NCBI GenBank assembly: GCA_964016885.1
Contig: OZ024743.1
Location: forward strand, 310,558,001-310,622,000
Source: Eledone cirrhosa
Lineage: Eukaryota
Length of the DNA stretch: 64,000 nucleotides
Direction of reading: 5' to 3'
The notes beneath the pieces were generated by a model, which searched no databases, was not told the origin of the DNA, and was given only the letters and a program-made list of their open reading frames with translations. Below are positions 6,906 to 64,000 of the stretch, piece by piece (the first letter of the stretch is position 1; the number at the start of each line of letters is the position of its first letter). Position numbers and translations under genes: made by a program.

Positions 6906-6950
<45 letters not shown>

Positions 6951-7079: not shown

Positions 7080-7145
7080 TATTTCGTTATATATATTTCA
7101 GGGATATCATATTAACAATATGTTATGCCTTCTTCAGACAAAATA
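7080..7145 (-). ncRNA. Type-I hammerhead ribozyme in PLE pLTR
   Basis: Reverse complement of 11157-11222. Confidence 0.85.
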
Positions 7146-8456
7146 CAATATAAACAGTCTTATAAATAAATAGATACGACATACCTTTCAATCACCTTGC
7201 ATTTGGGAAGTTGATTTGGCAGTAAAAAATATTGTGGACAGTTGTAAAAAGAAAGAGAGAAAGAAAGAAAGAAAGAGAAACGAAGAAAAAGAAGAAATGC
7301 ATGTGACTAAATAGAGAGATATAGAAAGATAGATAAAGAGAAGAACTTCATGTAAAGAAACAGAGAGAAATATATATAGAGAGAGGAAAAAAGAAAGAGA
7401 TAGATAGAGATAGATAGAGAACCTAGGAAGTTGAGTATCGGTTGATACATTTATTTATTTATTTATTTATTTATTTAGCTCTAGTATTAATGTAAAGAGA
7501 GATGTATGTAGTTAAGAGAGAAAATAGCCGTTATATAGAGAGAGAAAAGAGAAAATGAAAAAGAGAAAATGAAAAATAAAAAATAACCAGAAATAAACGA
7601 GGCAGAATTTAAAAACGCTGTTTCATCCTGTAGAAAATATTAGTTCGTATAAAACAGGCATTATAATGTAAATATCAGTATTCATGAATGAGACATGTAT
7701 CTATAATGTGTGAAAAGTAATGATCTTATGTCTAGTTTTTAAAAATTCATATGTTTATATCATAATTATAAACAAACTCCCAATTCACACGAAAACATTC
7801 TCATTGTGCTATAAAAATTCAAGTATACATATATGTGTGTATATATACACATATATATAGAGTCTATATTAATTTTAACAATACTATTCTTGTCTTTACT
7901 CTACATGATTGTCGATCAAGCAGAAATAGAGAACAGATTTCAATATATTAATAAAAATAAAAATAAAAATAAAAATAAAAATAAAAATAAAAATATCAGA
8001 GACAAGAAAATAAATAAATAAACAGAAAACTAAAACATTTAATATTAAAAATAAAAAATATTACAAAATATTAAAAAATAATAAAAATAAAACATAGTAT
8101 GCCACGCAAATCGGCCACAGAGATCAGCCTTTCAAAGTTAATTGACAATATATTGCCAAGTTCATCATAGGCATCAGAGTCGAAACAGATAAAACAAAAA
8201 TTGTTTACCAAATCCTGTCTAGCAGAAATCATTCCAAAAGTTTAGGATACCCATTTGGTCTACATATGTTCTTATATTTAATTATAGAAGTTTATCTAGT
8301 GTAAAATTTAATTCGATATATTTGGAGCATCAGCTTTTAGGGTAGTTTAATTATTCATGAAGAATGTTTTAATAAAAAGAATGTTTTAATAAAAAGAAGA
8401 AATCGAAAGATTTATCGGCTAGTTTCATAAATAATTACAAATCAAATCAAACATAA

Positions 8457-10240: not shown

Positions 10241-11156
10241 GCTATTTTTTATTTTTAATATTAAATGTTTTAGTTTTCTGTTTATTTATTTATTTTCTTG
10301 TCTCTGATATTTTTATTTTTATTTTTATTTTTATTTTTATTTTTATTTTTATTTTTATTAATATATTGAAATCTGTTCTCTATTTCTGCTTGATCGACAA
10401 TCATCTAGAGTAAAGACAAGAATAGTATTGTTAAAATTAATATAGACTCTATATATATGTGTATATATACACGCATATATGTATATTTGAATTTTTATAG
10501 CACAATGAGAATGTTTTCGTGTGAATTGGGAGTTTCTTTATAATTATGATATAAACATATGAATTTTTAAAAACTAGACATAAGATCATTACTTTTCACA
10601 CATTATAGATACATGTCTCATTCATGAATACTGATATTTACATTATAATGCCTGTTTTATACGAACTAATATTTTCTACAGGATGAAACACAGCGTTTTT
10701 AAATTCTGCCTCGTTTATGTCTGGTTATTTTTCATTTTCTCTTTTTCATTTTCTTTTTTCTCTCTATATAACGGCTATTTTCTCTCTTAACTACATACAT
10801 CTCTCTTTACATTAATACTAGAGCTAAATAAATAAATAAATAAATAAATAAATGTATCAACCGATACTCAACTTCCTAGGTTCTCTATCTATCTCTATCT
10901 ATCTCTTTCTTTTTTCCTCTCTCTATATATATTTCTCTCTGTTTCTTTACATGAAGTTCTTCTCTTTATCTATCTTTCTATATCTCTCTATTTAGTCACA
11001 TGCATTTCTTCTTTTTCTTCGTTTCTCTTTCTTTTTTTCTTTCTCTCTTTCTTTTTACAACTGTCCACAATATTTTTTACTGCCAAATCAACCTCCCAAA
11101 TGCAAGGTGATTGAAAGGTATGTCGTATCTATTTATTTATAAGACTGTTTATATTG

Positions 11157-11222
11157 TATTTTGTCTGAAGAAGGCATAACATATTGTTAATATGATATCC
11201 CTGAAATATATATAACGAAATA
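11157..11222 (+). ncRNA. Type-I hammerhead ribozyme in inverted pLTR
   Basis: tattttgt-CTGAAGA-agg..catatt gtt aatatg..cct-GAAA-tatat-ATA-acgaaata. Confidence 0.85.
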
Positions 11223-11259
11223 AATATGGTTTTATAAATATAGTTTCCATTTATTTAAT

Positions 11260-16333: not shown

Positions 16334-16378
<45 letters not shown>

Positions 16379-16599
16379 AATTAAGTTAAAAATGTACATC
16401 TACATATGCATACTGAAATACTAGTATTCATATGAATACACACACGTATACATATGTAGATGTACCAAGTCTTTCACTGGTTACTTTACTGTGAGTATCC
16501 AGCTATTCTGTATGTAAACACACAGACAAACCGGTTTTTAGAGTCATACTGGTTTTTGAGGAAACACCTTTCCTCTATTCTCCAGAAAGCCAGACAAGG

Positions 16600-16644
16600 A
16601 ATATTGAACTAGTTTCGTTGTTGTTACAACTCATCAGCAATATT
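16600..16644 (-). ncRNA. Type-I hammerhead ribozyme
   Basis: Reverse complement of 17212-17256. Confidence 0.9.
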
Positions 16645-17211
16645 TACCTATCTACCGGCCTTTCTGGAGAATCGTAAAAGCACATATCGTTATATGCTTT
16701 TTCTATGAAAATTAGTAGTGGGCAGACTAATTTGCATAGAGTGTGAGTACGTACCGGTTCAACGGAGACGATAAAAACAAATAACGAAACGAAATTAAAT
16801 TTCGTTTCGTTTGTAACTCACTTTTGTATGACTTAAACAATTAAGTTAAAAATGTACATCTACATATGCATACTGAAATACTAGTATGCATATGAATACA
16901 CACACGTATACATATGTAGATGTACCAAGTCTTTCACTGGTTACTTTACTGTGAGTATCCAGCTATTCTGTATGTAAACACACAGACAAACCGGTTTTTA
17001 GAGTCATACTTGTTTAAGCGTCCGTCATACAAAAGTGAGTTACAAACGAAACGAAATTTAATTTCGTTTCGTTATTTGTTTTTATCGTCTCCGTTGAACC
17101 GGTACGTACTCACACTCTATGCAAATTAGTCTGCCCACTACTAATTTTCATAGAAAAAGCATATAACGATATGTGCTTTTACGATTCTCCAGAAAGGCCG
17201 GTAGATAGGTA

Positions 17212-17256
17212 AATATTGCTGATGAGTTGTAACAACAACGAAACTAGTTCAATATT
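17212..17256 (+). ncRNA. Type-I hammerhead ribozyme
   Basis: aatattg-CTGATGA-GTTGT aaca ACAAC-GAAA-cta-GTT-caatatt, with palindromic stem III AACTAGTT. Confidence 0.9.
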
Positions 17257-17544
17257 CCTTGTCTGGCTTTCTGGAGAATAGAGGAAAGGTGTTTCCTCAA
17301 AAACCAGTATGACTCTAAAAACCGGTTTATCTGTGTGTTTACATACAGAATAGCTGGATACTCACAGTAAAGTAACCAGTGAAAGACTTGGTACATCTAC
17401 ATATGTATACGTGTGTGTATTCATATGCATACTAGTATTTCAGTATGCATATGTAGATGTACATTTTTAACTTAATTGTTTAAGCGTCCGTCATACAAAA
17501 GTGAGTTACAAACGAAACGAAATTTAATTTCGTTTCGTTATTTG

Positions 17545-17576
<32 letters not shown>

Positions 17577-18699: not shown

Positions 18700-21600
18700 T
18701 AAAAGATGTCCGTCAATGTAAAAAAGGTCCTTATTTACTTGAAATGGTTTATACAAATGCCAAATTAATATGGATATGGATAACATGATTATCTATAAGT
18801 GGTCAGCTATAATAATAAAACAACAAATTATATGACAAAAAAATGTATTCAGTAATATCCAGGCTCTTAGCCACTGAGTAATAGAATGTCAATATTGCCC
18901 AGAGTTCAACTCGGGGAGGTGGCCTGGTTTGAACTCCAAATGGCGGATCCTTCTACTTCGAAAATAGAATCGTTTTTCAATATTACTCTAGCCCTGGCCG
19001 GCCATAGGCACCAGACTCAGCATATGATGAGGTTTTATTTCGACCGCTCTCAGAAGCGATAAATTTGAAGGCAATTTCTACCAATACATGTTGGTTTTTA
19101 TTGCTCATTATCGACAATAAACGACATTGAACAGAAATGATAACTCTGTCAAAGCTCACAATACTGATCAAGGGATCAATGTCTGAATCATTTACGTCGA
19201 ATATTCATAGCAATGAAGGACATTTCTACCAATGCTTGTTGGTATTCATTGCGCAACATAGCTCATTAGTGGAAATCGAGTGGAGAACCTCATCGACCAA
19301 TTCTTTCTGAGATTGGGTCACCATTGGCATATGTTCATCCACAATACGTTGCTGTTCCAGTGGATCAAACTGGAATAGTTCCCTCCGATCGAGTGACAAC
19401 CGTCTAATCTGCAATCTCATGTTCAACGCTAAGACACGTTGCCGCATTTCTTCATCAGGAATTGGCAAATTGAAATCTGTTAAACATTTGAAATGAACTT
19501 CAAGCAGTTGCTCAATTGAGCAAAACAATAGTTTTCAACAAATGTTCATCATCGACCTGAAGATTATGCCTAAAATCATCAGCCATAATTCCCCAATGGC
19601 GTTCAAATAACCCTCTTGGATCGGCAGGATTGCAGAATCCTAGAATCGTGACAAACAACTGCCTTATTTGAGCTGGCATCTGTGATGTTCCTGCAGCTTC
19701 CATGGCGTTATTTCATTTAGCGTCATCCTGAAGGAGTCCCAGATGCTGACACACATCCTGGTATGTTTCATATTCCGCGCCATTGATTGTTTTCAAATCA
19801 GCGAAGCTCTGTTTACCTCTCGAAAAATCATTATGCAACAGAATTAGGAGATAAAACACATCACCAGATGCTGGATGGACATTACAAATCCGTCCTATAG
19901 TCATGAATCTCAACTTTTGTTTTCTATCATTCCATTTCTTTCCCTTCTTATCCCACGTATAGTGCGAAGGGAAATCGCAGTAGAGTTGCCTTTGGTCCGG
20001 GTTCAAAGCATGTTCCCTATTATGCTTGAACCACTCAGGCACTTCCGTCTTAGGAGGTGGTGCGTTAGCAATTCTTTCGACACCTCTTCTAGTGTCCTGA
20101 AAACAGACCATTTGCCTATCCTCTAAGTTAACCGTCAGTTTCTGAACGCTAAGTTTGCGTTCATTGAGATCAAAATCGAACAATCTCCAGCAAGCTTCCC
20201 TAGATCCAATCGAGCGAACATCCTGGAACCTGTCAACTTCATCTCCTTGGCTCGCTTCCTCATTCCTGATATTGATCATTGCCCGATCATGACCTTTGTA
20301 AACATATTTGAATAGATATTTGCAAGGTTTCACTGAGCTACAAACTTCTACATTAATATGACAACGATATTTCATAATCAAATATGGATTGTACGGTTCT
20401 TTGGCTGTTGTCCTGGCAAAAGTGCATCCTTAATATCAGTCCATTCGGGATTGCATGTAACCATTATAAACAAATCTGGCTTTCCAAACTTTCTAACAAT
20501 AGCCATTGCATCCTGATAGCGAATGTTCATATATCTCGGGCCGCCGATGAACGACGATGGCAAAATGATGCGTCGACCAATTTGCTTGTAATTGGCATCA
20601 TCGGCTGTTATAGCATCCTGTATACTATTATACAATTCAGCTCTGATATGTTGCTGATGTGTAGCTATATAATTTAGCCTTTCATTTTCGATCTTTGCTA
20701 ATGTCAAACAACAGTATTCCTGGAACAATCTGCTGGCTTGAAATAGTGCATTTCTCTGTTGATTCCTCTCATTCAAATGGAACGCGTAAAAGTCGCGAAT
20801 CGAATTATTGTGTCTATTGACACCTCCCTGTTGATGCTGATTTTCATGATCATCTAAATGAACAGACATGTTCCATCCATTTTCACCTTTTGGGAATAAA
20901 AGAACATAATGCAATGGATCGTATGCGCTATTTGACTCATTGATAGTCTTGAGACCACCATCTCTGCGATTGAGGAGGATATCTCTCGATCCAGGCTTAT
21001 CGTCCATCAACACAGCAACTTCACGAAATCCTTCAGGGGCATTATATCGCCATTCGTGTTGATTCCTTGGCACTGCGTCAGTCTTAATCAACAATATTTG
21101 CTGCTGAACATGTTGCAGTTCAATCACCAACATTAAATCCATAACCTAAGGATTACACTGTCTAAGTCATGGTTGCAAATCACGGATCAAATCACTGAAC
21201 TTTTGCCGTTTAAGTTCAGTTACATTTCCCGGCAACTTCATCCACCGATCCTGATATCCTCCTCCGATTCACTATAATCTGGATCGTTAACGTACATTTG
21301 ATCGAATCGAGGCCTCTCTCCTGGGTAACTTCTAAATTACCGATACGATGATACAAACGGCCTTGAATGACTACATTCGGTTGCCATGCTCCACTCTCAA
21401 ACATCTCACTAACTCTCTGCGATGCTAAAGCTAATGAATTGTTAATTTGCCGCGAATAATTGCGCAGTAATCTACCTCCGTCTCCTTGATCACCCCACAT
21501 ACTTAGTATTTTAAACTCCGGTGACTCCTCATCATCCGGCATTCGCAAGGGTTCTAGTTGAACTGCTCCTTTATGACAGCACGTTGTGGTCCACGTCTTT

Positions 21601-22928
21601 TCGTGCCTCCAAAGCAATGCTCCACAATGTGGACATTCTGCTCGTCCACCAATATGAAAATGACACGGTTGCCATGATCCATTTTTAATATCATTCGTTT
21701 GTTTCTAGCCTCTTTACTGGAATGAAGAGCACTTTGGCGACACATTCTCTGAACTTCTGTATTGCGCTGGCGCTGTTCAGCCAGCTCCTCTTCATCCATC
21801 GCAGCACGCCATTGCTGCTGAATTCTGGCCATCTGCTGATGATGCTCAGCCAGTTCGTCTTCCACTATCGCAGCACGCCGTCGCTGCTTGGCTCCAGTGT
21901 TTCGTTGGCGTTGTACAGCCAGCTCCTCTTCATTCATGGCGTCACGTCTTCGCCTCTGAAGTTTGGCGTTCCGATGGCGCTGTTCGGCCCGTTTTTCTTC
22001 ATTGCTGATGCACGCCGTCGCCGCTGTAGTTCACTATTTGATAAGGGTCGAATTGCTTTTATTGTCAGTATTCATTTCGAGCAATTGTCAAAAAATGACA
22101 CAATAATAAATATAAAAGATGTCTGTCAATGTAAAGAAAGGTCCTATTTACTCCCTTCACAACTCTCTGTATGTTAGACTGACAGACAGGCACACAGACA
22201 GATAAACTGCGTGGCGATTGTGGAACGCCACACACATACACGCATGGAAACGCGCACACGCACGCAAACTTACACACGTACACACTCACACATGTTGATA
22301 GTTTTTACTTTCTGTGGAACGCTGCACGCACGCACACACACATAAAGATACACGCACGTACATACACACGCACACATGTTAATAGTTATTGCTTTCCTTC
22401 CCTCTTATTTCCACACACATCACACACACACATGTCTCTACACTGACACATATACATAGTGTATAAAAAATGACACAATAATAAATATAAAAGATGTCCG
22501 TCAATGTAAAGAAAGGTCCCTATTTACCCCCTTCACAAATCTGTGTATGTTAGACTAACAGACAGGCACACAGACAGTTAAACTGCGTGGCGATTGTGGA
22601 ACGCCACACACATACACGCATGGAAACGCGCACATGCACGCAAACTTACACACGCACACGCACATGTTGATAATTTTTCCCCCCTGTGGAACGCTGCACA
22701 CACGCACACACACATAAACATACGCGCTCATACATACACACGCACACATGTTAATAGTTATTGAACACAGCGTTCACACACTCTCCTCTCACTCTCTCTT
22801 TGGCATTATGCATATTAATTTCAGTTTGGCGTCGTTGAGGTGGGCGGAGTCGTTTGAAACCTATGAACCAATGATAATCGAGAATTATGACACACGGAAT
22901 ACTGACGTTCTTGAAATTAATAAATAGG
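18700..22928 (-). mobile_element. Helitron (Rep pseudogene, internally deleted, helicase largely lost)
   Basis: YDPLHYVLLFPKGE, IILPSSFIGGPRYM, Rep motif 1 KPDLFIMVTCNPEW, motif 3 KYLFKYVYKGHD, CPHC..CC zinc finger region, and EEELAEQRQR repeats. ~380-bp 5' duplication (22085/22465). Confidence 0.92.
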
Positions 22929-23189: not shown

Positions 23190-23745
23190 AATGAAAAAAA
23201 AAGAAATTTCATTTCTCACTCTTAGTACGGCTGATACTTAAATATAAGAATGTATACGTACTTACATATATGTATGCATACCCACAGTAGTATATATATA
23301 CATACATACATGCACACATATATATATATATATATGTACGTATGTGTTTACCGAAAATTTATTATAATGTTCGGTTTGTTTCTAAACAAACAGCCCGAAT
23401 TAAGCCGTACAGTGTTCAGCAACTAACGTTGCCCTTTTGTTCAACGCTGACAAAGGAAAGATGAACTAGTTTCTAGCTTATTAGATGTCATCAGCACCGT
23501 ATACCTTCCTGTCAGTCGATTGAACGTTTGAATATATATACTTTCCTTATGCATATTAACGGCTGAGCAGCCTAATTTGCATATCGAGTAAGTTAGTCGG
23601 CCCGGCGTACCGAAAACGCTTATATGGAAAAAAAGGAAATTTCATTTCTCACTGTTAGTACGGCTGATACTTAAATATAATTATGTATACGTACATACAT
23701 ATATGTATACAGACGTACAGTAGTATATATATACATACATACATG

Positions 23746-23790
<45 letters not shown>

Positions 23791-24255
23791 GTATGGGTTT
23801 ACCGAACATTTATTATAATGTTTGGTTTGTTTCTAAACAAACAGCCCGAATTAAGCCGTACAGTGTTCGGCAACCATCGTTGCCATTTTGTTCAACACTG
23901 ACAAAGGAACGATGAACTAGCTTCTAGCTTATTAGCTGTCATCAGCAAAGTATACCTTCCTGTCAATCGATTGAACGTTTGAAAGTATATACTTTCCTTG
24001 TGCATATTAACGGCTGAGCAGTCTAATTTTCATATCGAGTGAGTTAGTCGGCCGGGCGGACCGAAAACGATTAAATGAAAAAAAAGGAAATTTCATTTCT
24101 CACTCTTAGTACGGCTGATACTTAAATATAAGTATGTATACATACATACATATATGTATACAGACGTACAGTAGTATGTATATATATACATACATGCAAA
24201 CATATATATATGTACGTATGGGTTTACCGAACATTTATTATAATGTTCGGTTTCT
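23190..24255 (-). repeat. Retrozyme-like tandem array: ~430-450 bp unit, ~2.4 copies, one HHR per full unit
   Basis: gaaatttcatttctcact at ~23203, ~23636 and ~24087. Distantly similar to the 16.4-kb unit (gcag.ctaatttgcata). Confidence 0.88.
23460..23498 (-). ncRNA. Type-I hammerhead ribozyme (second copy 23911-23949 has GAAG)
   Basis: ggtg-CTGATGA-c a(g/t)ct aata agct a-GAAA-cta-GTT-catc. Confidence 0.75.
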
Positions 24256-31399: not shown

Positions 31400-33982
31400 T
31401 CAGGTTATAAATTGGGTGTTGAGTTCTAGTCTATTATTGATTGGTGGTTGTGTTTTATCTATAATTAGTGCTTCCTTAATTCTAAGATTGCCGAGGTTTC
31501 TTTCCTTAGTTTCTATCCTAACTGTTATGGTTTTGTCGGTGTTTTTGCATTTAACTAGGTGTTTCTTAAATGAGGAAGCGTTAGTATTGAGGTGTTCTTT
31601 TATTCTTATGTGGAGTGGTCTGGTGGTGCTACCTACGTAGAAGTTGTTGCATTTGTCACACTCTAGTCTGTATACGACGTAAGCCTGGTGGCATAGGTCT
31701 GTGTCGTTGATGGGGCAGTTGGCTAGTCTGCAGCAGTTGTCATGTCTGGTGGAGTGTCTTTTGGTTAGCTGTCCGCGTAGAGAAGGACCTGAGTGGGCCA
31801 GTTGGATATCTAGTCCCTCTCCTCTGATGGCTCTGCGGATGGCTGTTGTTGTTTCTTCACTGAAGTGTGGGAGCTTCAGGAGGCAAGTGTTAGTGCCTCG
31901 GGTGTGGTGTCCTCTGTTCTTTCTGGCACGGTTTGTGGTGGATGTCGTGTATCCGTTCAGTTTGAGTACTTTTCAGGAAATGTGTGGTGTGTGTGTCTCG
32001 GTCTCTAGCGTCGGTGCATTTGTTCCGGATACGTGGCAATTCGTTCCTTATGTATCCGAACTTGGCACCAAGTGGGAGGGCCGATCTGAAATGTACGAAC
32101 AGGTCCCTGCTGGCGGCTTTTTTATAGAAGCAGGTGTGGATGTTGCCTTCCTCTGTTACCCTGAGTTGGAAGTCCAGTAGGGATAGGGATCCGCGGTCAT
32201 CGGGGTGTTCCATGCTGAACTTTATACTGGCGTCCATGCTGGAGAATGTTGTGTATATATTATCTGCCTCCTCACGGGATGATGTAAGGATGAGTATGTC
32301 ATCTACATATCGGGTGAAGAAGGCATGGGAATGGCAGGTGTTGAGGGCTCGGCATTCTAGCTGGTTCATGTAGGTGATGGCCAGCAGGCCCGATAGGCTG
32401 GATCCCATGGGTAATCCTGTTGTCTGTCTGTATGTGTGGTGGTGGAAGGTGAAGTACATGTTGTCTACTGTGAAGGACAAAAGCTGGTGTATGTCCGTCG
32501 GGTGGAGGCCGTAGCAGTGGATGTCCTCTGCGACCACGCAGTCCGTCAATAAATTGACAGCTGGATGAGCGGGGACTGTAGTGTAGAGGGAGACAACGTC
32601 GAGGCTAAAAGCGTATTTATTTAGTTTAAGTTGTTCTGGCTGGAGTTGGTGTAGTCTACGTATAACTTCGTCGGAGCTACTGACATGCCCGGGAAAGGTG
32701 GAGAGTAGAGGCTTGAGGACCTGGGAGAGGAGCCCGGAAATTTTGTATAGGGGTCCTTCTATGCTAGAGACGATGGGTCTTATCTGCGTCTTAGTACTAT
32801 TCTTGTGGGTCTTGATGAGGTGGTAGAAAGTACGCAGTCTGCTATTTCTAGTGGTGTAGTTGAGCTTAACTTTATTTGGGAGTTGTCTTCTCCTACAGAT
32901 ATCGAACCAAATGGAGTTGGTTTGTTTTTCGATCTGGGCTGCAGTCATGTCCGGGATCTCTGTGTATAACTCATTGTCGCTTAGGTGTTCAAGGGCTAGG
33001 TTATTGTATGTGGCTTGAGAGATGACGCAAAACTCTTTACCTTTGTCGGATCGTAAGTATATAAGTTCCCTATTCCGTAGGTTCTTCAGGGCGAGTTGTT
33101 GTGTCCTGGAGAGGTGTGGGACTATCTTCTTCTGTTTCCGTAAGATGTTAAATACGGAATGTTTTAGTCTCGAGAGTTTTTCTTCAAGCTCGCGGTTGGC
33201 AGGCGGTGGACAGAGTGGGCGATCTAGTTGGTATATCGGGAATCTGGGTTTGATAGATTCCGTGTTGTTGTTGTCGAGAGTCGATATCCATTTTAGTTGG
33301 TAGGCAGCCCGACAGAAATTCGTTTCTATGTCGAGCCATAATTTGTCGTCCAGTCTCTGTTTCAATATGAACTTGGGACCCAGGCTGAGGAGGTCTAATT
33401 CCTCTCGGGAGAGGGATCCTGTCAAGTCTGTGACGAGGTGTTTTGCGTCAGGTGTGTTGTTAGTCGGGGTGCCGCTAGGTTCGGTGTTGGTACCGTCTTG
33501 TTCGCCTCTGTTGGTGTTTAGAGTTGGAATGTTGTTAAGACAATTGGCCGTCCTGAGTTTGAGAAATGTTTGCGTTAGACGTATTTTCTCGTAGTCTCGG
33601 CGATGGTGGTATGAGCTGTCTATCGTGGCGGAGATGACTCTGGACAGAGGTTCTGGGGTTTCAGCGAGTTGTGGTACAAGGCTGGAAATAGTCCGTATGT
33701 GATGTTGTAGCGTGCGGTGTAGGTGTTGTATGAGTTTTCTTAGGCAGAATTTTTGTATGTAATTAAGTGATCGTTTGTGGCCTGGTGATTTGAAGCATGT
33801 TGGTAGGTGCAACTTTTTGATAGTTTTGGGATGATGTTGTTATTCAGGCATCGTTTTAGGAAGTTTATTTGGCAGCTGGCTTTGGCGCGCTTTTCAGATA
33901 GCTGGAAGTGTTTCTTTACAGTTGTGAACTGGGCCTGGCTCAGGCGTAAGGAAAGGAGGAGGTTATAGTTCACTTGAAGCAT
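31400..33982 (-). pseudogene. PLE RT + GIY-YIG ORF with two frameshifts
   Basis: RSDKGKEF, LIKTHK, IRPIVS, SLDVVSLYT, GLPMGSSLSG, TRYVDD, LLDFQL. Manual translation gives LCHQAYVVYRLECDKCNNFYVGSTTRPLHIRIKEH and PINNRLE then TGA at 31400. ATG at 33982. Confidence 0.92.
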
Positions 33983-36611: not shown

Positions 36612-36666
36612 ACTGCCTGAAGAGGTTACAGCCAAAGATAACTGTCACCGAAATATATATAGCAGT
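36612..36666 (+). ncRNA. Type-I hammerhead ribozyme near the 3' end of a ~1.5-kb TA-flanked non-coding segment (probable solo pLTR, 35272-36810)
   Basis: actgc-CTGAAGA-ggt.acag..ctgt.acc-GAAA-tatat-ATA-gcagt. Confidence 0.88.
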
Positions 36667-36808
36667 AATAAACGAAGCCAAATTTTAAATATTTGACTTA
36701 TTTATTTTATTTTACATTACTCTGGAGTAACCAAACCAACCTGCGCACTTTCGGGTGTTCCAATCTGCATACTGCGGTGTCGGTAAACAACTAACATATA
36801 CTCAAAAT

Positions 36809-36863
<55 letters not shown>

Positions 36864-36910: not shown

Positions 36911-39565
36911 GGGGGTAGTAACACAACAGTTAGTTCACCATACCAAGTACAATTCTATCAACTTATGTCGATCTTCAGCTCAGTTATACGGAACACGAAA
37001 AACAATCGCATGACGCGCGTGCGCAGAAACGGTCACTTCACCCAAGTGATACAAAACCACGGGCGAAAGGTGTAAGGGAGATAACTGCGAATGTCTGGAA
37101 TAAAATGTTCGAGTTGATTAGATTATTAGAATCTTGTTGTTATTAAATCCGGTGCTTTGTAGTTATGCAAGAGGTGTTTCCAGACATGTGGACAACGTGA
37201 GAAGATTTCATATATTGAATTTAAGCAATCGCTATTGCATAATCACCTTAGAATATTTATCCTTTCTTCAATACACAGTCCACAAACGGATTGTCCCTTG
37301 CGTATGGTTTGGACTTAGTGATAGCTTTCCATTGAATGGAATAGTTTATACCTGAGTCTTTGAGAGACAATACATGGCTCGCGAGCTTCGTGGATAATCG
37401 TTTGTCCGTGTACCTAAAGTTCGACTAATGGTTCAGGAAGCGTTCCTTAAATCGGAGCTCCACCATTTCCACATAGGATTTGCCCTCCTGCGGTTGACTT
37501 GGTCGGTTGGAAGTGACCACAGCTTCATAAACTATATTGGGTGTGTTGCATTGCTTTTGAAGGGGACCAGCTTCAGGCTTTCGACAAGAGCATCCTGGTG
37601 GGCTGCCGTTCTTAGGACTGTTGGTGATGTGGGCCTGCATATTCTTAGCGCAGGAGTACCCTAGTTTTACTCTGTGTCTGTTAAAGATGGTGCGGTATTT
37701 GTGACCTATAGGAAAGTGTCTATCTAAGAGGGCTAAACAATGTTTTCCTACATTAGTTTTAACGTTGAGTGAGAAGGGAGGGGAGAACAGATGGTTTGTC
37801 TATTGTTATGATTTCTTTTCTTATTGCTGTTGGTGTTAGAGGGGGGAGTAAGTAATTGGTTGCGAGAAGCCGCTGTTGTATTAGGTGGCCGGTCTGTCAA
37901 AGATTGTTTTATTAGAGGAGAGGTTAAAGATTCTAGTATTGATATTATTTACGAAGTTTCTAAAAACAGTAGGAGGGTGGCATGAGTCCTTGTGTATGCA
38001 ATTAAGTTTTTCGTTTAGTTTATGGAAGAGTCTAAAGGTATGTGTGCGAAGGTCTAAATTAATGTCTAAGAAATCTACGCTAGAGAGGTTGGTAGCTGCC
38101 GTTATCCTAACTCATTAAAAGTAGAAATTAAATCTTTTTTATTCCGCTCCAGGTCGTGACCACTTTTATGGCTCGATAACGTCAGACCATCGTCGCGGTA
38201 TATTCCCGTGTGGAAGTCTGGGAATCTAAAACGTAATGTATCTAAAATAAATAATCCAACCAAGTCGCATACGTCAGCACTGTCGAACGATCCCATGGAA
38301 ACGTCGAATAGTTCTGAAGTGTTTGACTTCTTTGCCCAGGCTACTCCGTTGTTGAAGAGGAGGGTTGAACGGTAGTGAAAATGGTAGCAAAGTCCAACGC
38401 TTTGTTTAACAGGGTCTCTGAGATCGACGGGTAAAAATCCACAATGTCGAATTGCGTGAACTTCGCTTTTTTTTGGAGTTGAAGGAGTTAAACAACTTAA
38501 TGACTGAGTCGAGTCGCTGTTCTCCCATTGGGACAGGTTGGACTTGGTCCTAATGGTCGTAACTATGTTCCTAAGTATAGCCTTACTGACTAGTCCCATT
38601 TCCGTGCGTATCGGGCTTAGTAGTCTACACGTGGGATTAAAAGCAAAGTCTACCTTGTGATCCTTCCGGGTGAGAAACGTCTCACGATTAGCTAAGCATT
38701 GTAGTATCTTATCTACCTTAAGGGCAGCAGCAAGGTCTTTGGCTTCTGTGTTGATGTCGTGGTAGGCCGTAAGGTTAGCCTTCTTATATTTAGAGATTAT
38801 GGCGTTACGTGCCAAGAGGCTGTAAGTAGTGTTGTCGACTTCGTAAATATTATTGGTTTTGTCAGAAAGAACGAAAGTTTTATTGTAAGAACTTAATTTC
38901 TTAACATTATTTCTAAGTTTAGTTTGGAAGGTGCTAGAGTGTTTGCAAAAGGAAATGTTAGCGACTAAGTCAAGGAGATCCTCTTCGAAAGGAGCGAGTT
39001 CATATACTTTAGGAGGGTAGGCTCTCGATTTCAAGTTGAAGGTGTTACTGGTGCCTGTAATTTTACCGACAAAAGCTAGGGCTTTCCATCTTAAGCGTTT
39101 GACGACGCCTTCCACTTTTCGTAGGAGAAGTTTTAAGTAAACATAGTTGGAGGGAGTGGGTATATTCTTCAGAGAATTATCCAGTTCGTATAAACCCATT
39201 CTGACGTTGGTGAGACAGAAAGTTGTATAAGACACGAGGATATAGAGAGCGCTCACAGGGTAGAAAGCCAAAATCCATGTGATGAGAAGGATCTGCTAAA
39301 AGCCAAACTTCCACCTGATGAAAAGAATCTGCTGACAGCTGCCGGAGACGTGCATAGAGGTAGAACACTGGAAGGTAATATCCGTAGTGGTAGAGCACTC
39401 AATCCATGGGACGAGTTTAGTAAAAGTAGTAACACAACAGTTAGTTCACCATACCGAGAACAATTTTTTCACCTTATGCCGAGCTTTAGCTTGGGTAAAG
39501 TGACCGTTTCTGCACACGCGCTTTCACACGGTTGTTTTTCCTGTTCCGTATAACCATTACCCGTC
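36911..39565 (-). mobile_element. Penelope-like element (Hydra-type motifs), decayed ORF ~37160-39200, with pLTR copies at both ends
   Basis: SLKNIP, LRWKA, SDKTNNIY, DVSMGSFDSADVCDLVG, GIYRDDGL; CSCRKP..PLQKQC..NIVY, FKERFLNH. 36917-37045 recurs, partly inverted, at 39426-39555. Confidence 0.9.
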
Positions 39566-40337: not shown

Positions 40338-40397
<60 letters not shown>

Positions 40398-40444
40398 AAC
40401 GTAGAATAAGAAAATTATAAAATTAACTTACTTACTAATATATC

Positions 40445-40526
40445 ACTTCCAACTAATTAGTTTCTGGAATGGAGTAAATATGTTTTCCGAAGAAGATATT
40501 GAAAAGCATTCCGTCGTCAGGGAAGT
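40445..40526 (-). ncRNA. Type-I hammerhead ribozyme (sister copy 40967-41048 has A9T)
   Basis: Reverse complement of the 41698 motif. Confidence 0.85.
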
Positions 40527-41697
40527 CTATTTTCATCCAAGTTACCAGGCAAAGCCAGGACGCTGGAAACTTATTAAAAAATAATTCAGTGGATAGGAAA
40601 TAGCAAAGCGTGGACTGAATTCCCAGCCATTGAGAAAATCACTGCCTCTACGTCTGTGGCAAATTCAAAAAGAATCAATCACGTGACATCGAGGTCAATC
40701 AGTGGAAAGTGGTTTGCTAATAAGACGGCGGCCTACCTACTACCATAGCAGCAGTCATGGCCAATATTGCTCGACAAATAATTTGGAGATAATAATAAAG
40801 AATTTATATCTAGTAACATATATATACATACAGATGCATATCAATGCTAGCAGATATATAGGTTTTGTCTTAGTAACATTGTGGTTCAATGCATGGGGTT
40901 GCAGAACAATAATATGAGAAACGTAAAATAAGAAAATTATGAAATTAACTTACTTACTAATATATCACTTCCAACTAATTAGTTTCTGGAATGGAGTAAA
41001 TATATTTTCCGAAGAAGATATTGAAAAGCATTCCGACGTCAGGGAAGTCTATTTTCATCCAAGTTACCAGACAAAGCGAGGACGCTGGAAACTTATTAAA
41101 AAATAATTCAGTGGATAGGAAATAGCAAAGCGTGGACTGAATTCCTAGCCATTGAGAAAATCACTGCCTCTACGTCTGTGGCAAATTCAAAAAGAATCAA
41201 TCACGTTACTAAGACAAAATGTTACTAAGACAAAATGTTACTAAGACAAAATGTTACTAAGACAAAACCTATATATCTGCTAGCATTGATATGAATCTGT
41301 ATGTATATATATATGTTACTAAGACAAAATGTTACTAAGACAAAATGTTACTAAGACAAAACCTATATATCTGCTAGCATTGATATGCATCTGTATGTAT
41401 ATATATGTTACTAGATATAAATTCTTTATTATTATCTCCAAATTATTTGTCGAGCAATATTGGCCATGACTGCTGCTATGGTAGTAGGTAGGCCACCGTC
41501 TTATTAGCAAACAACTTTCCACTGATTGACCTCGATGTCACGTGATTGATTCTTTTTGAATTTGCCACAGACGTAGAGGGAGTGATTTTCTCAATGCCTA
41601 GGAATTCAGTCCACGCTTTGCTATTTCCTATCCACTGAATTATTTTTTAATAAGTTTCCAGCGTCCTGGCTTTGCCTGGTAACTTGGATGAAAATAG

Positions 41698-41779
41698 ACT
41701 TCCCTGACGACGGAATGCTTTTCAATATCTTCTTCGGAAAATATATTTACTCCATTCCAGAAACTAATTAGTTGGAAGT
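41698..41779 (+). ncRNA. Type-I hammerhead ribozyme
   Basis: acttcc-CTGACGA-c GGAATG...CATTCC a-GAAA-ctaatta-GTT-ggaagt, with palindromic stem III AACTAATTAGTT. Confidence 0.88.
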
Positions 41780-42218
41780 AATATATTAGTAAGTAAGTTA
41801 ATTTTATAATTTTCTTATTTTACGTTTCTCATATTATTGTTCTGCAACCCAATGCATTGAACCACAATGTTACTAAGACAAAACCTATATATCTGCTAGC
41901 ATTGATATGCATCTGTATCTATATATATGTTACTAGATATAAATTCTTTATTATTATCTCCAAATTATTTGTCGAGCAATATTGGCCATGTCTGCTGCTA
42001 TGGTAGTAGGTAGGCCGCCGTCTTATTAGCAAACCACTTTCCACTGATTGACCTCGATGTCACGTGATTGATTCTTTTTGAATTTGCCACAGATGTAGAG
42101 GCAGTGATTTTCTCAATGGTAGGAATTCAGTCCACGCTTTGCTATTTCCTATCCACTGAATTATTTTTTAATAAGTTTCCAGCGTCCTCGCTTTGCCTGG
42201 TAACTTGGATGAAAATAG

Positions 42219-42300
42219 ACTTCCCTGACGACGGAATGCTTTTCAATATCTTCTTCGGAAAATATATTTACTCCATTCCAGAAACTAATTAGTTGGAAGT
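42219..42300 (+). ncRNA. Type-I hammerhead ribozyme
   Basis: Same as 41698-41779. Confidence 0.88.
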
Positions 42301-42469
42301 GATATATTAGTAAGTAAGTTAATTTTATAATTTTCTTATTTTACGTTTCTCATATTATTGTTCTGCAACCCCATGCATTGAACCACAATGTTACTAAGAC
42401 AAAACCTATATATCTGCTAGCATTGATATGCATCTGTATGTATATATATGTTACTAGATATAAATTCTT

Positions 42470-42544
<75 letters not shown>

Positions 42545-42777
42545 TATATCTATCTATCTCTCTCGCTCTCTCTCTCTATCTCTCTCTCTCTCTATAAATA
42601 TATATATATATATTGTTATACTTGGGGAGGGTCATATTGTTGTAATAATATTGCCAGAAATAATAACAGAACATACTCACTGTTTGGTTGGTTTTAGCCT
42701 CTGTATCTATTATATCTCCATAGTTAATTTATTTGGCAATCAATACTTTTCATTGACTAACTAACGGTTAGAAATAC

Positions 42778-42882: not shown

Positions 42883-43074
42883 CAGTTCAAGAGTAAACCA
42901 ATCTTAAATAGAGAGATTGAGATAGGATAGGAGAGATTGGTGAAGGCATTAGAAGCCAAAATCTTAAAAGCGGGTGCTCGATGTGCAATATGCAGTGGAA
43001 AACAGTTGTAAAACTGGATTCATGCGAAGGTTAGGTGTACATAGCTGGAAATATTCATTAGTACACACCAGCCG

Positions 43075-44100
43075 CATAGTTTAAACAATCCTACTCCTAC
43101 TAATCGTAATCGTAATTGGAACTGCCGTAACCCCAGTGCGTGCCCGCTGAACGGGCAGTGCCTTACGCCCAATATCGTATATAGGTGCATGGTTAGAACG
43201 GCCTCATCTACTAGCTCTTATATTGGCTCTACATCTAACCCCTTTAAGGTTCGCTGTAATGCGCACACATTTTCCTTCCACGACCCTAGCCATAGATGCT
43301 CAACTTCTCTAGCCAGGCTCATTAAAAACTTTAAACTAGCCAACATTGAACATCCACTAACTTGGGATATCTTAACTACATCTCCAGCGTTTGATGGGAG
43401 AAGAAACTGTTGCGATCTCTGTCTTACCGGGGCCTATCAAATAACTTCGTCAAGGCCACCCCATCAACGACTGGAATGAGTTGGTCATCCACTGCCTCCA
43501 CCGCAGAGCGAGCTCCTTCGCTAACAGAATATTCGACCCAACTTAGCATATCCTTAGTCATGCTCCTCCCTATAACTAACAAACCAAAGGCATCGTTATT
43601 CCACCACATAAACACCTATAAGTTACCTCCCTCGCATTATCTTAGTTACAAATCTCATTGTGACTATACCTATAAGCTACCTCCCTCACATTATCTTGGT
43701 TACAACTCTCATTGGGGCCTTTAGCTCTTCAAGGAGTTACCTCCCTTGAAACCCATCTCTATATAATAAGGTAATTTTCCTACAAGAAGCCATATAGTTA
43801 TGTGATAGGCGCCATTGTTTAGTTTCAGCCTCGACAGATATGTAATCTTTGTTTATACCACACACTTGAGTTCTCCAGTGCTAAGGGACCCCATCTAGGG
43901 AGCTGCTAATCTGAGGAGACTTTACGGACACGTAACCCTCTTGTTTTATTGTTATTTCTACTTTATATATATTAATAATTTCATTATCTCATCTCAAGTT
44001 CCGAGGATCTGCTCCATAATATTATTTTATGTTACTTATCTTTCTCTGCACCAAATCAATAACGATCTTACCATCGATTGATCCAGAAACATTATATGGA
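43075..44100 (+). mobile_element. PLE 3' fragment: GIY-YIG endonuclease remnant plus pLTR
   Basis: NCRNPSACPLNGQCLTPNIVYRC..YIGSTSNPFKVR..H..SF, LTWDIL, CDLCLT. The 3' boundary is approximate. Confidence 0.8.
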
Positions 44101-54508: not shown

Positions 54509-56263
54509 ACGGGAAAAAACGAATATAGTACGTCATTAATAGGAGCGGTGAAAAATAATTACGCGCAAAGACAGAACCACGTTTATGGTATAAAAGAAGT
54601 CGTAGACTAATGTTCTCTTAGGTGCTTCATCGAGACGTTCTCTGGCAATGACGACTCTATTTGGATAAAAAAATCCAATAGTACCCCATTCGACGTCAGT
54701 ATAGGCGCCAGCGATTCTGCGGAGGTTACTGATCTTATCGGCCTTTTCCTTCTTTTCTCTATCAAGGACGAATTCCCCAACGCGGGCGGTGGTTTGTACC
54801 GTGATGATGGTCTTTTGACCATGACTAAGTGCGGACCTCGTGCTTGCGACAGGTTCAGAAAAGAACTCAACACCTTCTTTAAAGGATTCAACCTCTCTAT
54901 ACAGGTTGAGGCCAATCTCTCGGTCTTTAATTACCTCGACGTTACCCTCAATTTATCGAATATGTTGTATTACCCGTATAGAAAGCCGAATGATACGCTT
55001 AATTACATAAGTAAGCATTCCACCCATCCTGCCAGCATAACCAAGAACCTGGTAAGAAACGTTTCGTTGAGGCTTTCCCGTCTATCTACTAACGAGCATA
55101 TTTTCAACGACCATTCCACTTATTACAATGAAGCTCTTTCTCGGAGTGGATTTGTCGATAAGGTAGCATATACAGAGTACGAAAATAGACCGAGAAGAAA
55201 TAGATCCCGTCGCATTTGTTGGTATAACCCACCATATAACATGGAGGTGGCCACACCATTAGCTAAGATCTTTCTTTCCCTTATTACGAAGCATTTTCCC
55301 CCTACACATAAATATAGTAACATTTTTAAGAGAGATACTATTAAAATTTAACCTTGCACATATCATCACAGCTTCAAATTTAGCTAAACTACCTAGCCGT
55401 AGGAACACATGCAACCCTGTAGTTAGTACTAACTGTAATTGTAGGAATCGGGTTGATTGCCCCCTATCCGGGAAATTCCTCTCTAGTAACATTGTCTACA
55501 AATGTAAGGTTGAAACACCCACGTCCCGTAGGGCCTACATAGGGTTAACCGCCAATAAATTCAAGCAGCGTCTTTACATGCATACCCATTCTTTTCGTTA
55601 CCCTCTAAGAAGGAATATGACGTCACTTTCAGCTTATATCTGGAGTCTAAAAGACAACCACGCCCAATATAAGTTACACTGGGAGATCCTAGCTAGGGCT
55701 AGATCCTATAACGGAAATAAAAGACCATGTTACCTCTGCGCCGCTGAGGCTCTGGAAATACTCTACGCCACAGATCGCATCTTAAACAAAAGATTTGAGG
55801 CAATTTCGGCTTGTAAACATAAATTGCACAAAACTTTCCTGTATTACAGCCCCACGTTATACCGTAACGGATAGTACGATCTATACGTGGATATTTTACG
55901 TCTTGATGTGGTAGCTAAGTATATTTTTTGTTTATACCATTACTTATTTGCATAGGTAAGTATATATTACCTGTATATTTTGTGAAGGTACGTATACTTT
56001 CTCGTACGAATATTTGATTGTATATGTTATGGGGTATAATTTTTTATATATTCTGGTACATATGGTTTGGTTATGTGTATACGGGAGTTTTGCGTCTGTG
56101 TGAGTATGCGGGTTCGTACGTATGTAGGGTGTGTGTATATGTGTACTTCATGTTTTGGTTGACTTACGTCTCCGAACATTTGTGTATTTACATGTAGGTA
56201 TGTGTGTGCGCTTGTTATATACGTATTTATTTATATACGTTTATTTAATTATTTATTTATTTG

Positions 56264-56346
<83 letters not shown>

Positions 56347-57233
56347 TTATACGTGCATGGTTTTGTATACCTATGGCAAGTGTTTTCGCGTATGCTTGTG
56401 TATGTACGTATTTGCATGCGTGTATGTATTTATTTAATTTCTATTACCTCTGTATTGTATTTTATTTACTTTATTCTTAACTCTGAAGCGGAGATTCATT
56501 CGGTTTACTAGTTAGAATTTCAGTCTACGACTTCAGCTATACCATTTATGTGGTTTTGTCTTTGCGTGCAATTTTCTCCACGCTCCACATATGACGTAGT
56601 ATCTTCGTTTTTTTCGTTCATTGCCAGAGAACGTCTCTATGAACCGCCTAAGAGAACATTAGTCTACGACATCTTTTATACCATAAACGTGGTTCTGTCT
56701 TCCGCGCGTAATTGTTTTTCACCGCTCCTATTAATGACGTAATATATTCGTTTTTTCCCGTTCTTTGCCAGGGAACGTTTCCACGAACCAAAGTATCGTC
56801 TTCCTCCGGTTGCAATGTTTTTTGAAATATCCACTTCTGCGTTTACAGATTGACTTTGTTAGTTTCAGAAATAATATATATATATATAGTAATAATAATA
56901 AATTTGAAGACTAAAATCCAAAGAGGGCTCGATAAGGATAAATATATATCAAATATATAAGAACCGTAGAGCAAATATTTATTAAAATAACAGATTAAAG
57001 TTTAAGCAAAAATCGCTGCTTTCACCCTTAACGGGATCTTCTGAAACTAACAAAGTCAATCTGTAAACGCAGAACTAGATAGAACCAAAGTATCGTCTTC
57101 CTGTCTTCCTCCGGTTGCAACGTTTTTTGAAATATCCAGTTCTGCGTTTACAGATTGACATTGTTAGTTTCAGAAGATCCCGTTAAGGGTGAAAGCAGCG
57201 ATTCTTTGCTTAAACTTTAATCTGTTATTTTAA

Positions 57234-58031: not shown

Positions 58032-58116
58032 GGTGAGTTTTATTGTAGCACAATAAAGCAATGCAAATATCGGATAAGTAGCACTCAACAGAGTTTATAG
58101 GACTGGAATATAAATA

Positions 58117-58479
58117 ATATAAAATCAAAAGATAGTTAAAATAGTTCCATGTATTTTATGCGCATTTCAAAAACAAATATCATCATGGGTGATATTTGCG
58201 TTCTAATCAGATAAAATAGGGAGACATGATATGAAGCTTAAAAAACACTTGCGAGCAGTGAAGTGTCAAATCAACATATGTTGATTTGACACTTCACTGC
58301 TCGTAAGTGTTTTTTAAACATGTATGTTGATTTGACATTTCACTGCTCGCAAATGTTTTTTAAGCTTCATATCAATTCTCCCTATTTTATCTGATGAGAA
58401 CGCAAATATCATCCCATGATGATATTTGTTTTTGAAATGCGCATAATAAAATACATGGAGCTATTTTAACCATCTTTTG

Positions 58480-58488
<9 letters not shown>
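58117..58488. repeat. Fold-back pLTR-like element with a duplicated ~45-bp segment at the apex
   Basis: 58117-58278 versus 58279-58488 reverse complement. atgttgatttgaca..tttttaa occurs twice. Confidence 0.88.
58383..58453 (+). ncRNA. Type-I hammerhead ribozyme
   Basis: tattttat-CTGATGA-gaac GCAAATATCATC ccat GATGATATTTGT tttt-GAAA-tgcgc-ATA-ataaaata. The mirror copy has CTGATTA. Confidence 0.9.
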
Positions 58489-58537
<49 letters not shown>

Positions 58538-61042: not shown

Positions 61043-64000
61043 TCTATATATTAATTTCAACAATGTTATTATTCCGTGTGTCATAATTCTCGATTATCAT
61101 TGGTTCATAGGTTTCAAACGACTCCGCCCACTTCAACAACGCCAAACTGAAATTAATATGGATAATGCCAATTAGGGAGTGAGAAGGGAGAGTGTGAACG
61201 CTGTGTTTGATACACTATGTATATGTGTCAGTGTAGAGACATGTGTGTGATGTGTGTGGAAATAAGAGGGGAAGGAAAGCAATAACTATTAACATGTGTG
61301 CGTGTGTATGTACGTGCGTGTATCTTTATGTGTGTGTGCGTGCGTGCAGCGTTCCACAGAAAGTAAAAACTATCAGCATGTGTGAGTGTGTGCGTGTGTA
61401 AGTTTGCGTGTGTGTGCGCGTTTCCATGCGTGTATGTGTGTGGCGTGCCACAATCGCCACGCAGTTTATCTGTCTGTGTGCCTGTCTGTCAGTCTAACAT
61501 ACACAGAGTGGTGAAGGGAGTAAATAGGGACCTTTCTTTACATTGCCGAACATCTTTTATATTTATTATTGTGTCATTTTTTGACAATTGCTCGAAGTGA
61601 ATACTGACAATAAAAGCAATTCGACCCTTATCAAACAGTGAACTACAGCGGCGATGGCGTGCAGCCAGCAATGAAGAAAAACGGGCCGAACAGCGCCATC
61701 GGAACACCGAACTTCAGAGGCGAAGACGTGCCGCCAACAATAAAGAGGAGCTGGCTGAACAACGCCAACGAAACACTGGAGCCAATCAGCGACGGCGTGC
61801 TGCGATGGTGGAAGACGAACTGGCTGAGCATCATCAGCAGATGCCAGAATTCAGCAGCAACGGTGTGCTCCGATGGATGAAGAGGAGCTGGCTGAACAGC
61901 GCCAGCGCAAAACAGAAGTTCAGAGAATGTATCGCCAAAGTATTCCTCATTCCAGTAAAGAGGCCAGAACGCGAACGAATGATATTAAAAATGGATCATG
62001 GCAACCGTGTCATTTTCAGATTGGTGGACGAGCAGAGTGCCCACATTGTGGAGCATTGCTTTGGAGGCACGAAAAGACGTGGGCCACAATGTGCTGTCAT
62101 AAAGGAGCATTTCAACTAGAACCCTTGCGAATTCTGGATGATGAGCAGTCACCGGAGTTTAAAATACTAATTATGTGGGGTGATCAAGGAGACCGAGGTA
62201 GATTACTGCGCAAATATTCGCGGCAAATTAACAATTCATTAGCTTTAGCAGCGCAGAGAGTTAGTGAACCGAATGTAGTCATTCAAGGCCGTTTGTATCA
62301 TTGTATCGGTAATTTAGATGTTACCCAAGGAGTGAGGCCTCGAGTCGCTCAAATTTACGTTAACGATCCAGATTATAGTGAATCGGAGGAGGATATCAGG
62401 ATCGGTTGGATGAAGTTGCCGGGAAATATAACTGAACTTGAACGGCAAAGGTTAAGTGATTTGATCCGTGATTTGCAATCCTGGCTTAGAGAGTGTAATC
62501 CTTATGTTATGGATTTAATGTTGGTGATTGAACTGCAAAATGTTCAGCAGCAAACATTGGTGATTAAGGCTGACGCCGTGCCAAGGAATCATTACGAACG
62601 GCGATATAATGCCCCTGAAGGATTTCGCTAAGTTGCTGTGTTGATGGACGATAAGCCTGGATCGAGAGACATCCTCCTGAATCGCAGAGATGGTGGTCTC
62701 AAGACTACCAATGAGTCAAATAGCGCATACGATCCATTGCATTATGTTCTTTTATTCCCAAAAGGTGAAAATGGATGGAACATGTCTGTTCATTTAGATG
62801 ATCATGATAATCAGCATCAACAGGGAGGTGGCAATAGACACAATAATTCGATTCGCGACTTTTACGCGTTCCATTTGAACGAGAGGAATCAACAGAGAAA
62901 TGCGCTATTTCAAGCCAGCAGATTGTTCCAGGAATACTGTTGCATGGCGTTCGCAAAGATCGAAAATCAAAGGCTAAATTATATAGCTACACATCAGCAA
63001 CATACCAGAGCTGAATTGTATAATAATATACAGGATGCGGTAACAGCCGATGATGCCAATTACAAGCAAATTGTTCGACGCATCATTTTGCTATCGTCGT
63101 TCATCGGCGGCCCGAGATATAAGAACATTCGCTATCAGGATGCAATGGCTATTGTCAGAAAGTTTGGAAAGCCAGATTTGTTTATAACGGTTACATGCAA
63201 TTCTGAATGGACTGATATTAAGGATGCACTTTTGTCAGGACAACAGCCAGAGACCGTCCTGATATTGTGGCAAGAGTATTCAAAGGATATCTGAAAAAGA
63301 TAATGGATGATGAAGAAAGAGAGGGAATCTTTGGAGGTATAGTTGCTTTTACATACGTAATTGAATTCCAAAAAAGAGGATTGCCACATGCACTTTGCTG
63401 ATCATTTTACATAGAGATTGCAAATTGAGATGTGCTGAGGATGTTGACAGCATTGTGAGTGCTGGACAGCCGGAGAATGAGGCACTACGCAAATTGGTGG
63501 CAAAGTCAATGGTGCACAACCAATGCGGAGTGAAAAATCGGAAAGCGCCTTGCATGAAAAATGGCCAATGCAGTAAGCACTTTCTGAAATCTTTTGTCAC
63601 GAACACTTCCTGGAACGATGGGGATGCTCATCCCTCATACAGAAGACGGTCGCCTGCCGATGGCGGTTTGGTCGAAAATGTAAACGGTCGACAGGTTACA
63701 AATCAGTGGGTTGTGCCATACATTCCATATTTGATTATGAAATATCGTTGTCATATTAATGTGGAAATTTGTAGCTCAGTGAAAGCTTGCAAATATCTAT
63801 TCAAATATATTTACAAAGGTCATGATCGGGCAATGATCAATGCCAGGAATGAGGAAGCGAACCAAGGAGATGAAGTTGGCAGGTTCCAGGATGTTCGCTC
63901 GATTGGATCTAGCGAAGCTTGCTGGAGATTGTTCGATTTTGATCTCAATGAACGCAAACCCAGCGTTCAGAAACTGACGGTTCACTTAGAGTATAGGCAA
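61043..64000 (+). mobile_element. Helitron (5' end and Rep pseudogene), running off the window
   Basis: 5' A|TCTATATATT. CPHCGALLW..CC, YDPLHYVLLF, KPDLFITVTCN (motif 1), YVIEFQKRGLPHA (motif 2), KYLFKYIYKGHD (motif 3). Homologous to 18700-22928. Confidence 0.95.

Follow-up and report, generated by a model that had tools for sequence, protein, structure and literature searches.

Positions 40390-42475 of the window (the whole stretch of 64,000 nt analysed here, part of a genome assembly of 3.0 Gb) are occupied by two tail-out arms of one ribozyme-bearing non-coding repeat, lying between (TA)n tracts. In total, the array holds 3.75 units with a length of 521-522 nt and 97-99% identity between units, and the longest ATG-started open reading frame (ORF) of the window monomer has 58 codons (27-58 codons across four subfamily representatives). 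The description of about 3.7 non-coding copies in an earlier note on this DNA was thus borne out. The features of the array are as follows:

40338..40393: left (TA)n target tract
40390..41209, minus strand: left arm, 820 nt, 1.57 units
40445..40526, minus strand: type I hammerhead 1, core intact, predicted cut between 40451 and 40450
40967..41048, minus strand: hammerhead 2, A9-to-U, core CUGACGU instead of CUGACGA
41205..41340, plus strand: junction, made of a 16-nt repeat (x3.9), unit positions 90-162 and a 16-nt repeat (x3.1, to 41361)
41341..42475, plus strand: right arm, 1135 nt, 2.18 units
41698..41779, plus strand: type I hammerhead 3, intact, GUU triplet, predicted cut after 41773
41774..42294, plus strand: predicted cut-to-cut monomer, 521 nt
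42058..42074, plus strand: conserved block with an E-box-like palindrome, kept in all four subfamily representatives
42219..42300, plus strand: type I hammerhead 4, intact, predicted cut after 42294
42356..42475, plus strand: tail of the type found in Penelope-like elements (PLEs), about 120 nt, from the short-end to the long-end position, on one arm only
42473..42557: right (TA)n target tract

The outer end of the left arm is the short end (61 nt beyond the cut) and its inner end is 5'-truncated at unit position 286; the outer end of the right arm is the long end (about 180 nt beyond the cut). No clean inversion point is present in the centre of the array (41205-41340), which consists of two 16-nt repeat runs and a 94-nt duplication, and these junction repeats are likely the product of reverse-transcriptase slippage. 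Fifteen variants relative to the family majority are common to all pieces of the window insertion, which fits a single template for the whole of it. The conserved block, of which a variant other than that of the window has 4,494 exact genomic matches, is possibly an internal promoter element.

At E<1e-3 the unit gave no further match in the rest of the window, in agreement with the earlier statement that it is unrelated to a 465-nt family, which we took to be the hammerhead element with a period of about 460 nt at 16374-17551. This second, non-coding-looking element also has inverted arms, with hammerheads at 16637 (minus) and 17219 (plus) and with ends that lie about 231 and 299 nt beyond the cut. 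PLE pieces at 37425-39295 and 43045-43479 were counted as neighbours and not as parts of the array, with (TA)n and unrelated sequence lying between. Hammerhead-bearing end fragments of other families are found at 58108-58498 (a short+long pair around a tiny insert), 36617-36811 and 57576, and a PLE with RVT_1 and GIY-YIG Pfam matches, which we take to be of the Poseidon-like type, lies at 31400-33839 (minus) with a hammerhead at 34875. A two-copy tandem with a period of 451 (23318-24211) showed no hammerhead in the scans. The segments at 19713-22468 and 61206-64000 are presumably Helitron-like fragments, in two inverted copies with 94% identity, and 3691-6496 is presumably a broken RTE-like LINE.

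The hammerhead and its covariation

Core starts were located at 40520 and 41042 on the minus strand (522 nt apart) and at 41704 and 42225 on the plus strand (521 nt apart). Each unit builds a hammerhead with a helix I of 6 bp, a helix II of 6 bp with a long loop and a 12-nt palindrome across helix III, present in four copies (at 40451, 40973, 41762 and 42283). The four ribozymes that had been announced can therefore all be placed, but the core at 41042 is altered and three of the four are intact; to judge from its core, hammerhead 2 is likely inactive. Because the core at 41042 carries A9-to-U, the right arm alone could release an exact monomer: the spacing behind the earlier claim of exact excision was recovered in both arms, but two intact cores occur in the right arm only.

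The build corresponds to that of the PLE hammerheads described in PMC4209133, with an extra base after A9, G10.1-C11.1, a long helix II and a palindromic helix III. Unlike the minimal PLE hammerheads of that source, the unit closes a helix III of 3 bp with a tetraloop, forms a second stem within loop II that covaries, carries an additional A ahead of G12 and has GUU as its cut triplet, which is among the listed cleavable hammerhead triplets (PMC3138052).

An Rfam scan of the window at gathering thresholds returned no match, the other hammerheads of the window included, and the ribozyme call thus rests on core sequence and covariation. GUU, a slow hammerhead cleavage triplet, is the cut triplet in 82 of 87 distinct intact cores. 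Among these cores, helix II pair 2 takes all four Watson-Crick types (UA 44, GC 36, CG 4, AU 1, unpaired 2) and pair 5 is mainly GC (43) or UA (40); the second stem within loop II covaries too, and the changes in helix I are a one-pair co-deletion. When 30 of the 43 representatives chosen from intact cores were aligned on the fold, 94.2% of cells were paired compared with 82.2% after shuffling (0 of 500 shuffles as high), while slid registers gave 33-48%. By this comparative evidence the hammerhead fold is under selection across the family, with the reservation that kinship among the sequences inflates the counts.

The isolated helix III palindrome is predicted at -9.0 kcal/mol as a duplex and at +0.8 kcal/mol per hairpin, which bears out the earlier proposal that it suits dimeric folding. 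When the complete transcript of the right arm is folded, neither helix I nor helix III exceeds a pair probability of 0.03, so that folding alone does not predict activity. The local hammerhead fold is no stabler than shuffles (z -0.70), and U17 is able to pair with A14 (-1.3 kcal/mol).

A dispersed family with two fixed ends

For the 19-mer spanning core and cut site, exact matches in the genome number 12,089 (reversed control, 0), which supplies the copy count called for in the earlier note, and a second family motif has 14,251 (control, 3). The window array is a single insertion of a genome-wide dispersed family, whose natural monomers measure 520-590 nt and whose subfamilies are 68-88% identical. 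Elsewhere, arrays reach up to about 11 units arranged head-to-tail, from hammerhead to hammerhead in 520-590-nt steps. At C5:11373382-11379652 there are about 11 near-identical units (0-4 substitutions), with private variants common to two units four apart. A pattern scan of metagenomes gave no match, and an intron within the unit was dropped as a candidate, the acceptor being absent from a sister subfamily.

Family copies end either about 61 nt (the short end) or about 180 nt (the long end) beyond the predicted cut. A microsatellite adjoins the short end in 44 of 46 cases and the long end in 42 of 46, counted with stricter end classes than the revised ones used for end pairing. Among 123 elements wholly inside retrieved loci (80 position-ordered on C1 via three motifs and 43 best BLAST matches), 77 have two outward arms and 46 have one; a short end is paired with a long end in 64 of the 77, a non-standard end occurs in 13, and short+short or long+long in none. 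The same pairing was found in all 11 complete two-armed elements of a further 30 loci, and the window copy obeys it, with the short end on the left and the long end on the right. The outer ends merge into (TA)n, where no target-site duplication is readable; in non-LTR retrozymes such duplications, when present, exceed 4 bp. On the copies compared, the inversion is the normal insertion form of the family and not a later accident. The central inversion reported earlier does comprise two opposed arms, but it is a regular two-ended PLE-type insertion product with fixed ends in (TA)n.

PLE insertions are recognised by partial tandems, a truncated copy in inverted orientation and a tail on one side (PMC8557442), and the unit family shows the corresponding layout of a non-autonomous PLE, with a partial tandem, an inverted 5'-truncated copy and a tail on one end. 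Hydra-clade PLEs as described by Craig et al. 2021 (PMC8557442) resemble it in the (TA)n target, hammerheads near the ends, the inverted 5'-truncated copy and the one-end tail, whereas the unit has no ORF and no extended homology to the coding families sampled. The tail is about 120 nt in the unit, compared with 30-40 bp described for PLEs in the same source and 66-100 nt in the other hammerhead families of this genome. A further likeness is found in the Poseidon PLE of Anolis (Frangieh et al. 2024, PMC11167929), in which two internal reverse-transcription start sites 3' of the hammerhead bound and define the tail, the purified protein cuts and extends both strands, and RNA 3' of the start sites is required. 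Poseidon uses the same start sites on either strand in vitro (PMC11167929), while the unit family uses one of each per two-armed insertion.

Tandem non-coding units with type I hammerheads are non-LTR retrozymes (PMC7229834), and a recent preprint makes the case that retrozymes derive from PLEs and are non-autonomous (Li, Clavereau and Pollet 2026, bioRxiv 10.64898/2026.07.22.740005). The right arm has two consecutive intact type I cores 521 nt apart, and the unit has neither protein coding nor an LTR layout (PBS and PPT were not separately searched). Like animal non-LTR retrozymes, it forms non-coding, low-GC tandems with one type I hammerhead per unit, high copy number and co-occurring PLEs (PMC7229834; bioRxiv 10.64898/2026.07.22.740005). 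Its length falls within the 51-972 bp range of retrozymes given in the preprint and exceeds the 170-400-nt retrozyme RNAs of Cervera and de la Pena 2020 (PMC7229834). As these sources describe animal retrozymes, their hammerhead is canonical, whereas that of the unit is PLE-type and its copies are mostly dispersed two-armed insertions in (TA)n; in the text consulted, neither inverted two-ended insertions nor fixed ends are described for retrozymes. The preprint reports that, of nine Xenopus retrozyme dimers, eight failed to cleave in vitro. In the partial survey of the literature made here, the short+long pairing, the hairpin described below and the stops at the cut site were unreported; the hairpin or the pairing may already be documented in the supplements to PMC11167929, PMC8557442 and the preprint.

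Taken as a whole, the array is best explained as the insertion of a non-LTR retrozyme, likely reverse-transcribed in trans into (TA)n by the RT-endonuclease of a Hydra-clade PLE, and we place the probability of such a PLE-mobilised retrozyme at about 0.82.

Stops at the predicted cut

Inner ends were scored in 106 colinear arms with standard ends, hand-copied from 80 position-ordered elements, with complex arms dropped. Twenty-three of them lie at +1..+35 after the cut, compared with 9.4 expected (P about 1e-4), and 20 without an artefact-prone position (P 0.002); the cut was read through in 112 of 135 passes, and stops peak a second time at unit 441-480. Of 215 contexts in all retrieved loci, the cut is read through in 185; among the other 30, 22 stop within +1..+12 and eight begin at the cut, with 0-7 matching bases upstream of it (two of these 30 cases resemble internal deletions and one was counted twice). 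One element (L243) begins exactly at the cut, and in another (L248) both arms begin there. According to the text of PMC11167929, no ends at the hammerhead cut were found in Poseidon RNA-seq, whereas the unit family holds a genomic trace of them. At L288 (about 1460-1600), the inner end of a unit consists of short repeats of the cut-site stretch alternating with (TA)n, resembling telomerase-style repeated priming.

The pile-up of inner ends just 3' of the cut suggests that some templates were self-cleaved; the unit is AT-rich at +7..+40, and microhomology in this stretch could be another cause of the enrichment. The pattern would fit templates that were mostly circles or uncleaved multimers, with self-cleaved linear RNAs as the smaller share. 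From these genomic traces, hammerhead cleavage in vivo appears reasonably likely, and for a circular template we would give even odds.

The same PLE parasite could also carry its hammerhead as a rarely cleaving passenger, with an uncleaved multimeric transcript as template and with no need of a monomer or circle. Such a passenger would account for the predominance of read-through (185 of 215 contexts), for helices I and III not being predicted in the long transcript, and for the finding that hammerhead mutants were without effect on anole PLE insertion in vitro (PMC11167929). However, compensatory changes keep core and helices across subfamilies that are 68-88% identical, and stops crowd +12 to -4 of the cut while being absent just upstream save for one deletion. 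The near-identical units of long arrays fit a circle, yet they also fit a homogeneous source array. We regard a passenger hammerhead as unlikely, though by no means negligible.

Coding PLEs, the bulged hairpin and the mode of insertion

The window also contains a coding PLE, and it shares a short structural motif with the unit:

6949-11258: coding Hydra-type PLE of family N1, hammerheads at 7137 (minus) and 11165 (plus), short+long tail-out layout
41840..41861, plus strand (also 42361-42382 plus and 40885-40906 minus): bulged hairpin of the short end, 6 nt past the end position
41958..41976, plus strand (also 41436-41454 plus and 40770-40788 minus): bulged hairpin of the long end, 5 nt past the end position

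Family N1 is young and genome-wide (71,678 first-look candidates), with open frames of 745-748 codons and many intact copies. Its protein contains RWR, DKT, a CxCx5C linker and terminal CxxC/CxH, without CCHH in the endonuclease; its target is (TA)n, and one short and one long end occur in 13 of 14 pairs. Short+long pairing was also found in all seven rows (six distinct loci) of three other hammerhead families. N1 thus shows the Hydra diagnostics given in PMC8557442, namely an RWK-like motif, DKT, CxCx5C, no CCHH, (TA)n and a hammerhead, and a Neptune label for these coding elements was dropped in favour of that description. Pfam recognised RT or GIY-YIG in only 2 of 11 frames, and the Hydra assignment therefore rests on motifs (no tree). 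Another Hydra-type family (54611-56870 and L211-L218), with frames of 709-726 codons, had no canonical hammerhead in the scan and keeps the bulged hairpin just upstream of the start codon; hammerheads are reported to be universal in the Hydra clade.

Both N1 ends are closely followed on the 3' side by a bulged hairpin, which the descriptor also places at the short end in four of eight other families. In the window monomer the descriptor has exactly two matches, 6 and 5 nt after the ends (shuffles, about 0.017 per 12-nt window), and the short-end match has pair probabilities of 0.78-0.94. The short-end hairpin is kept in 40 and the long-end hairpin in 43 of 48 monomers, the landmark being absent in 6 and 3, respectively. 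Ten hairpins of other hammerhead or PLE families covary (87.3% paired vs 76.0% shuffled, 0 of 500 as high), and a covariance model was built from them with no retrozyme row. The long-end hairpin was its top match in every unit, with 19.3 bits vs 7.1 for the next (E = 0.0045 over the array and 0.14 over the window), and those of other subfamilies scored 10-19 bits; the short-end hairpin obtained 3.8 bits (E about 9). As the motif was first noticed by eye, before the model, this test was not blind. At the level of sequence and predicted structure, the long-end hairpin appears clearly common to the unit and the coding PLEs, while the short-end match is weak by the covariance model.

Among the loci sampled, no coding element showed homology to the unit, and we therefore infer the PLE partner from target, layout and short motif. 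The three coding families sampled showed no homology to the unit, and about 30 other hammerhead groups (647 kb of loci) gave best local-alignment z values of 3.9 or less against its first 230 nt. Inside the units there were no PLE protein matches and no frame with RT plus GIY-YIG, as would mark an autonomous PLE. Cores with another base before GAAA gave 148 matches (control, 56), and the 30 loci retrieved were mutated units or chance matches. From the target, the layout and the motif, a Hydra-clade PLE is the probable helper of the retrozyme.

Alternatively, the units might be pseudo-LTR or UTR remnants of an unfound autonomous PLE, with the arrays being its 5'-truncated copies. The PLE-type build of the hammerhead (Cervera 2014, PMC4209133), the 5'-truncation of most PLE copies and the size of the sample, a few hundred of several thousand loci, would all accord with such an origin, as would locus L173 (1254-1803, minus), where unit positions 2-425 and the final 41 codons of another Hydra-type family meet in a 5-nt microhomology. 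However, this fusion is possibly a single template switch, and the coding family concerned showed no unit homology in eight near-full-length copies. L217 was rejected as a coding element framed by units, being a nested insertion across (TA)n. Moreover, arms of up to about 11 units run from hammerhead to hammerhead without coding sequence, whereas 3.8 kb separate the hammerheads of coding N1, and no same-strand core pair 3-5 kb apart was found among the first 100 matches listed. The remnant origin is thus improbable, and the caveat raised earlier, that the unit may be the mere UTR of a coding element, did not apply to any examined locus. Satellite amplification at the DNA level, with inversion by recombination, fold-back repair or misassembly, is largely refuted: unequal crossover can expand retrozyme multimers (bioRxiv 10.64898/2026.07.22.740005) and the private variants of the long C5 array would suit it, but neither DNA expansion nor assembly error would be expected to yield short, dispersed insertions that have two base-precise ends in (TA)n, strictly pair a short with a long end and vary at their inner junctions.

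For a PLE-mobilised retrozyme, the following course of insertion may be envisaged. A tandem copy would be transcribed, perhaps from the conserved E-box block, the hammerheads would cut a fraction of this RNA, probably in dimeric form or aided by protein, and released monomers may be ligated into circles. The PLE protein would cut both strands of the (TA)n tract and be positioned by the hairpins, with +61 as the priming site of one cDNA and about +180 as that of the other. Each cDNA would run upstream through the cut site into further units, of a circle or multimer, until it stops; joining of the 5' ends of both cDNAs would then give the tail-out inversion, and slippage near the end of the right-arm cDNA would give the 16-nt and 94-nt repeats. 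More specifically, a hairpin 5-14 nt 3' of each start may position a Hydra-type PLE dimer for asymmetric short and long priming, on a retrozyme RNA that is self-cleaved, circularised and reverse-transcribed by rolling circle; we put this forward tentatively, with rather less than an even chance of being correct.

The type of element is already known; the short+long end rule and the hairpin are added detail and make PLE priming testable. The family offers a clean substrate for two open PLE questions (PMC8557442), the origin of tandem, inverted and tailed insertions and the role of the hammerhead, since a 521-nt RNA with two base-precise starts, a candidate hairpin and a young, intact candidate helper could be tested in the published in vitro system. 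If the specific scheme of hairpin-positioned asymmetric priming on a self-cleaved, circularised RNA is true, a single mechanism would account for the PLE tail, the tandems and the inversion, and a genome would for the first time be seen to record that a PLE-type hammerhead cuts in vivo. The link between retrozymes and PLEs is also extended, from sequence similarity in vertebrates to insertion mechanics held in common with the Hydra clade.
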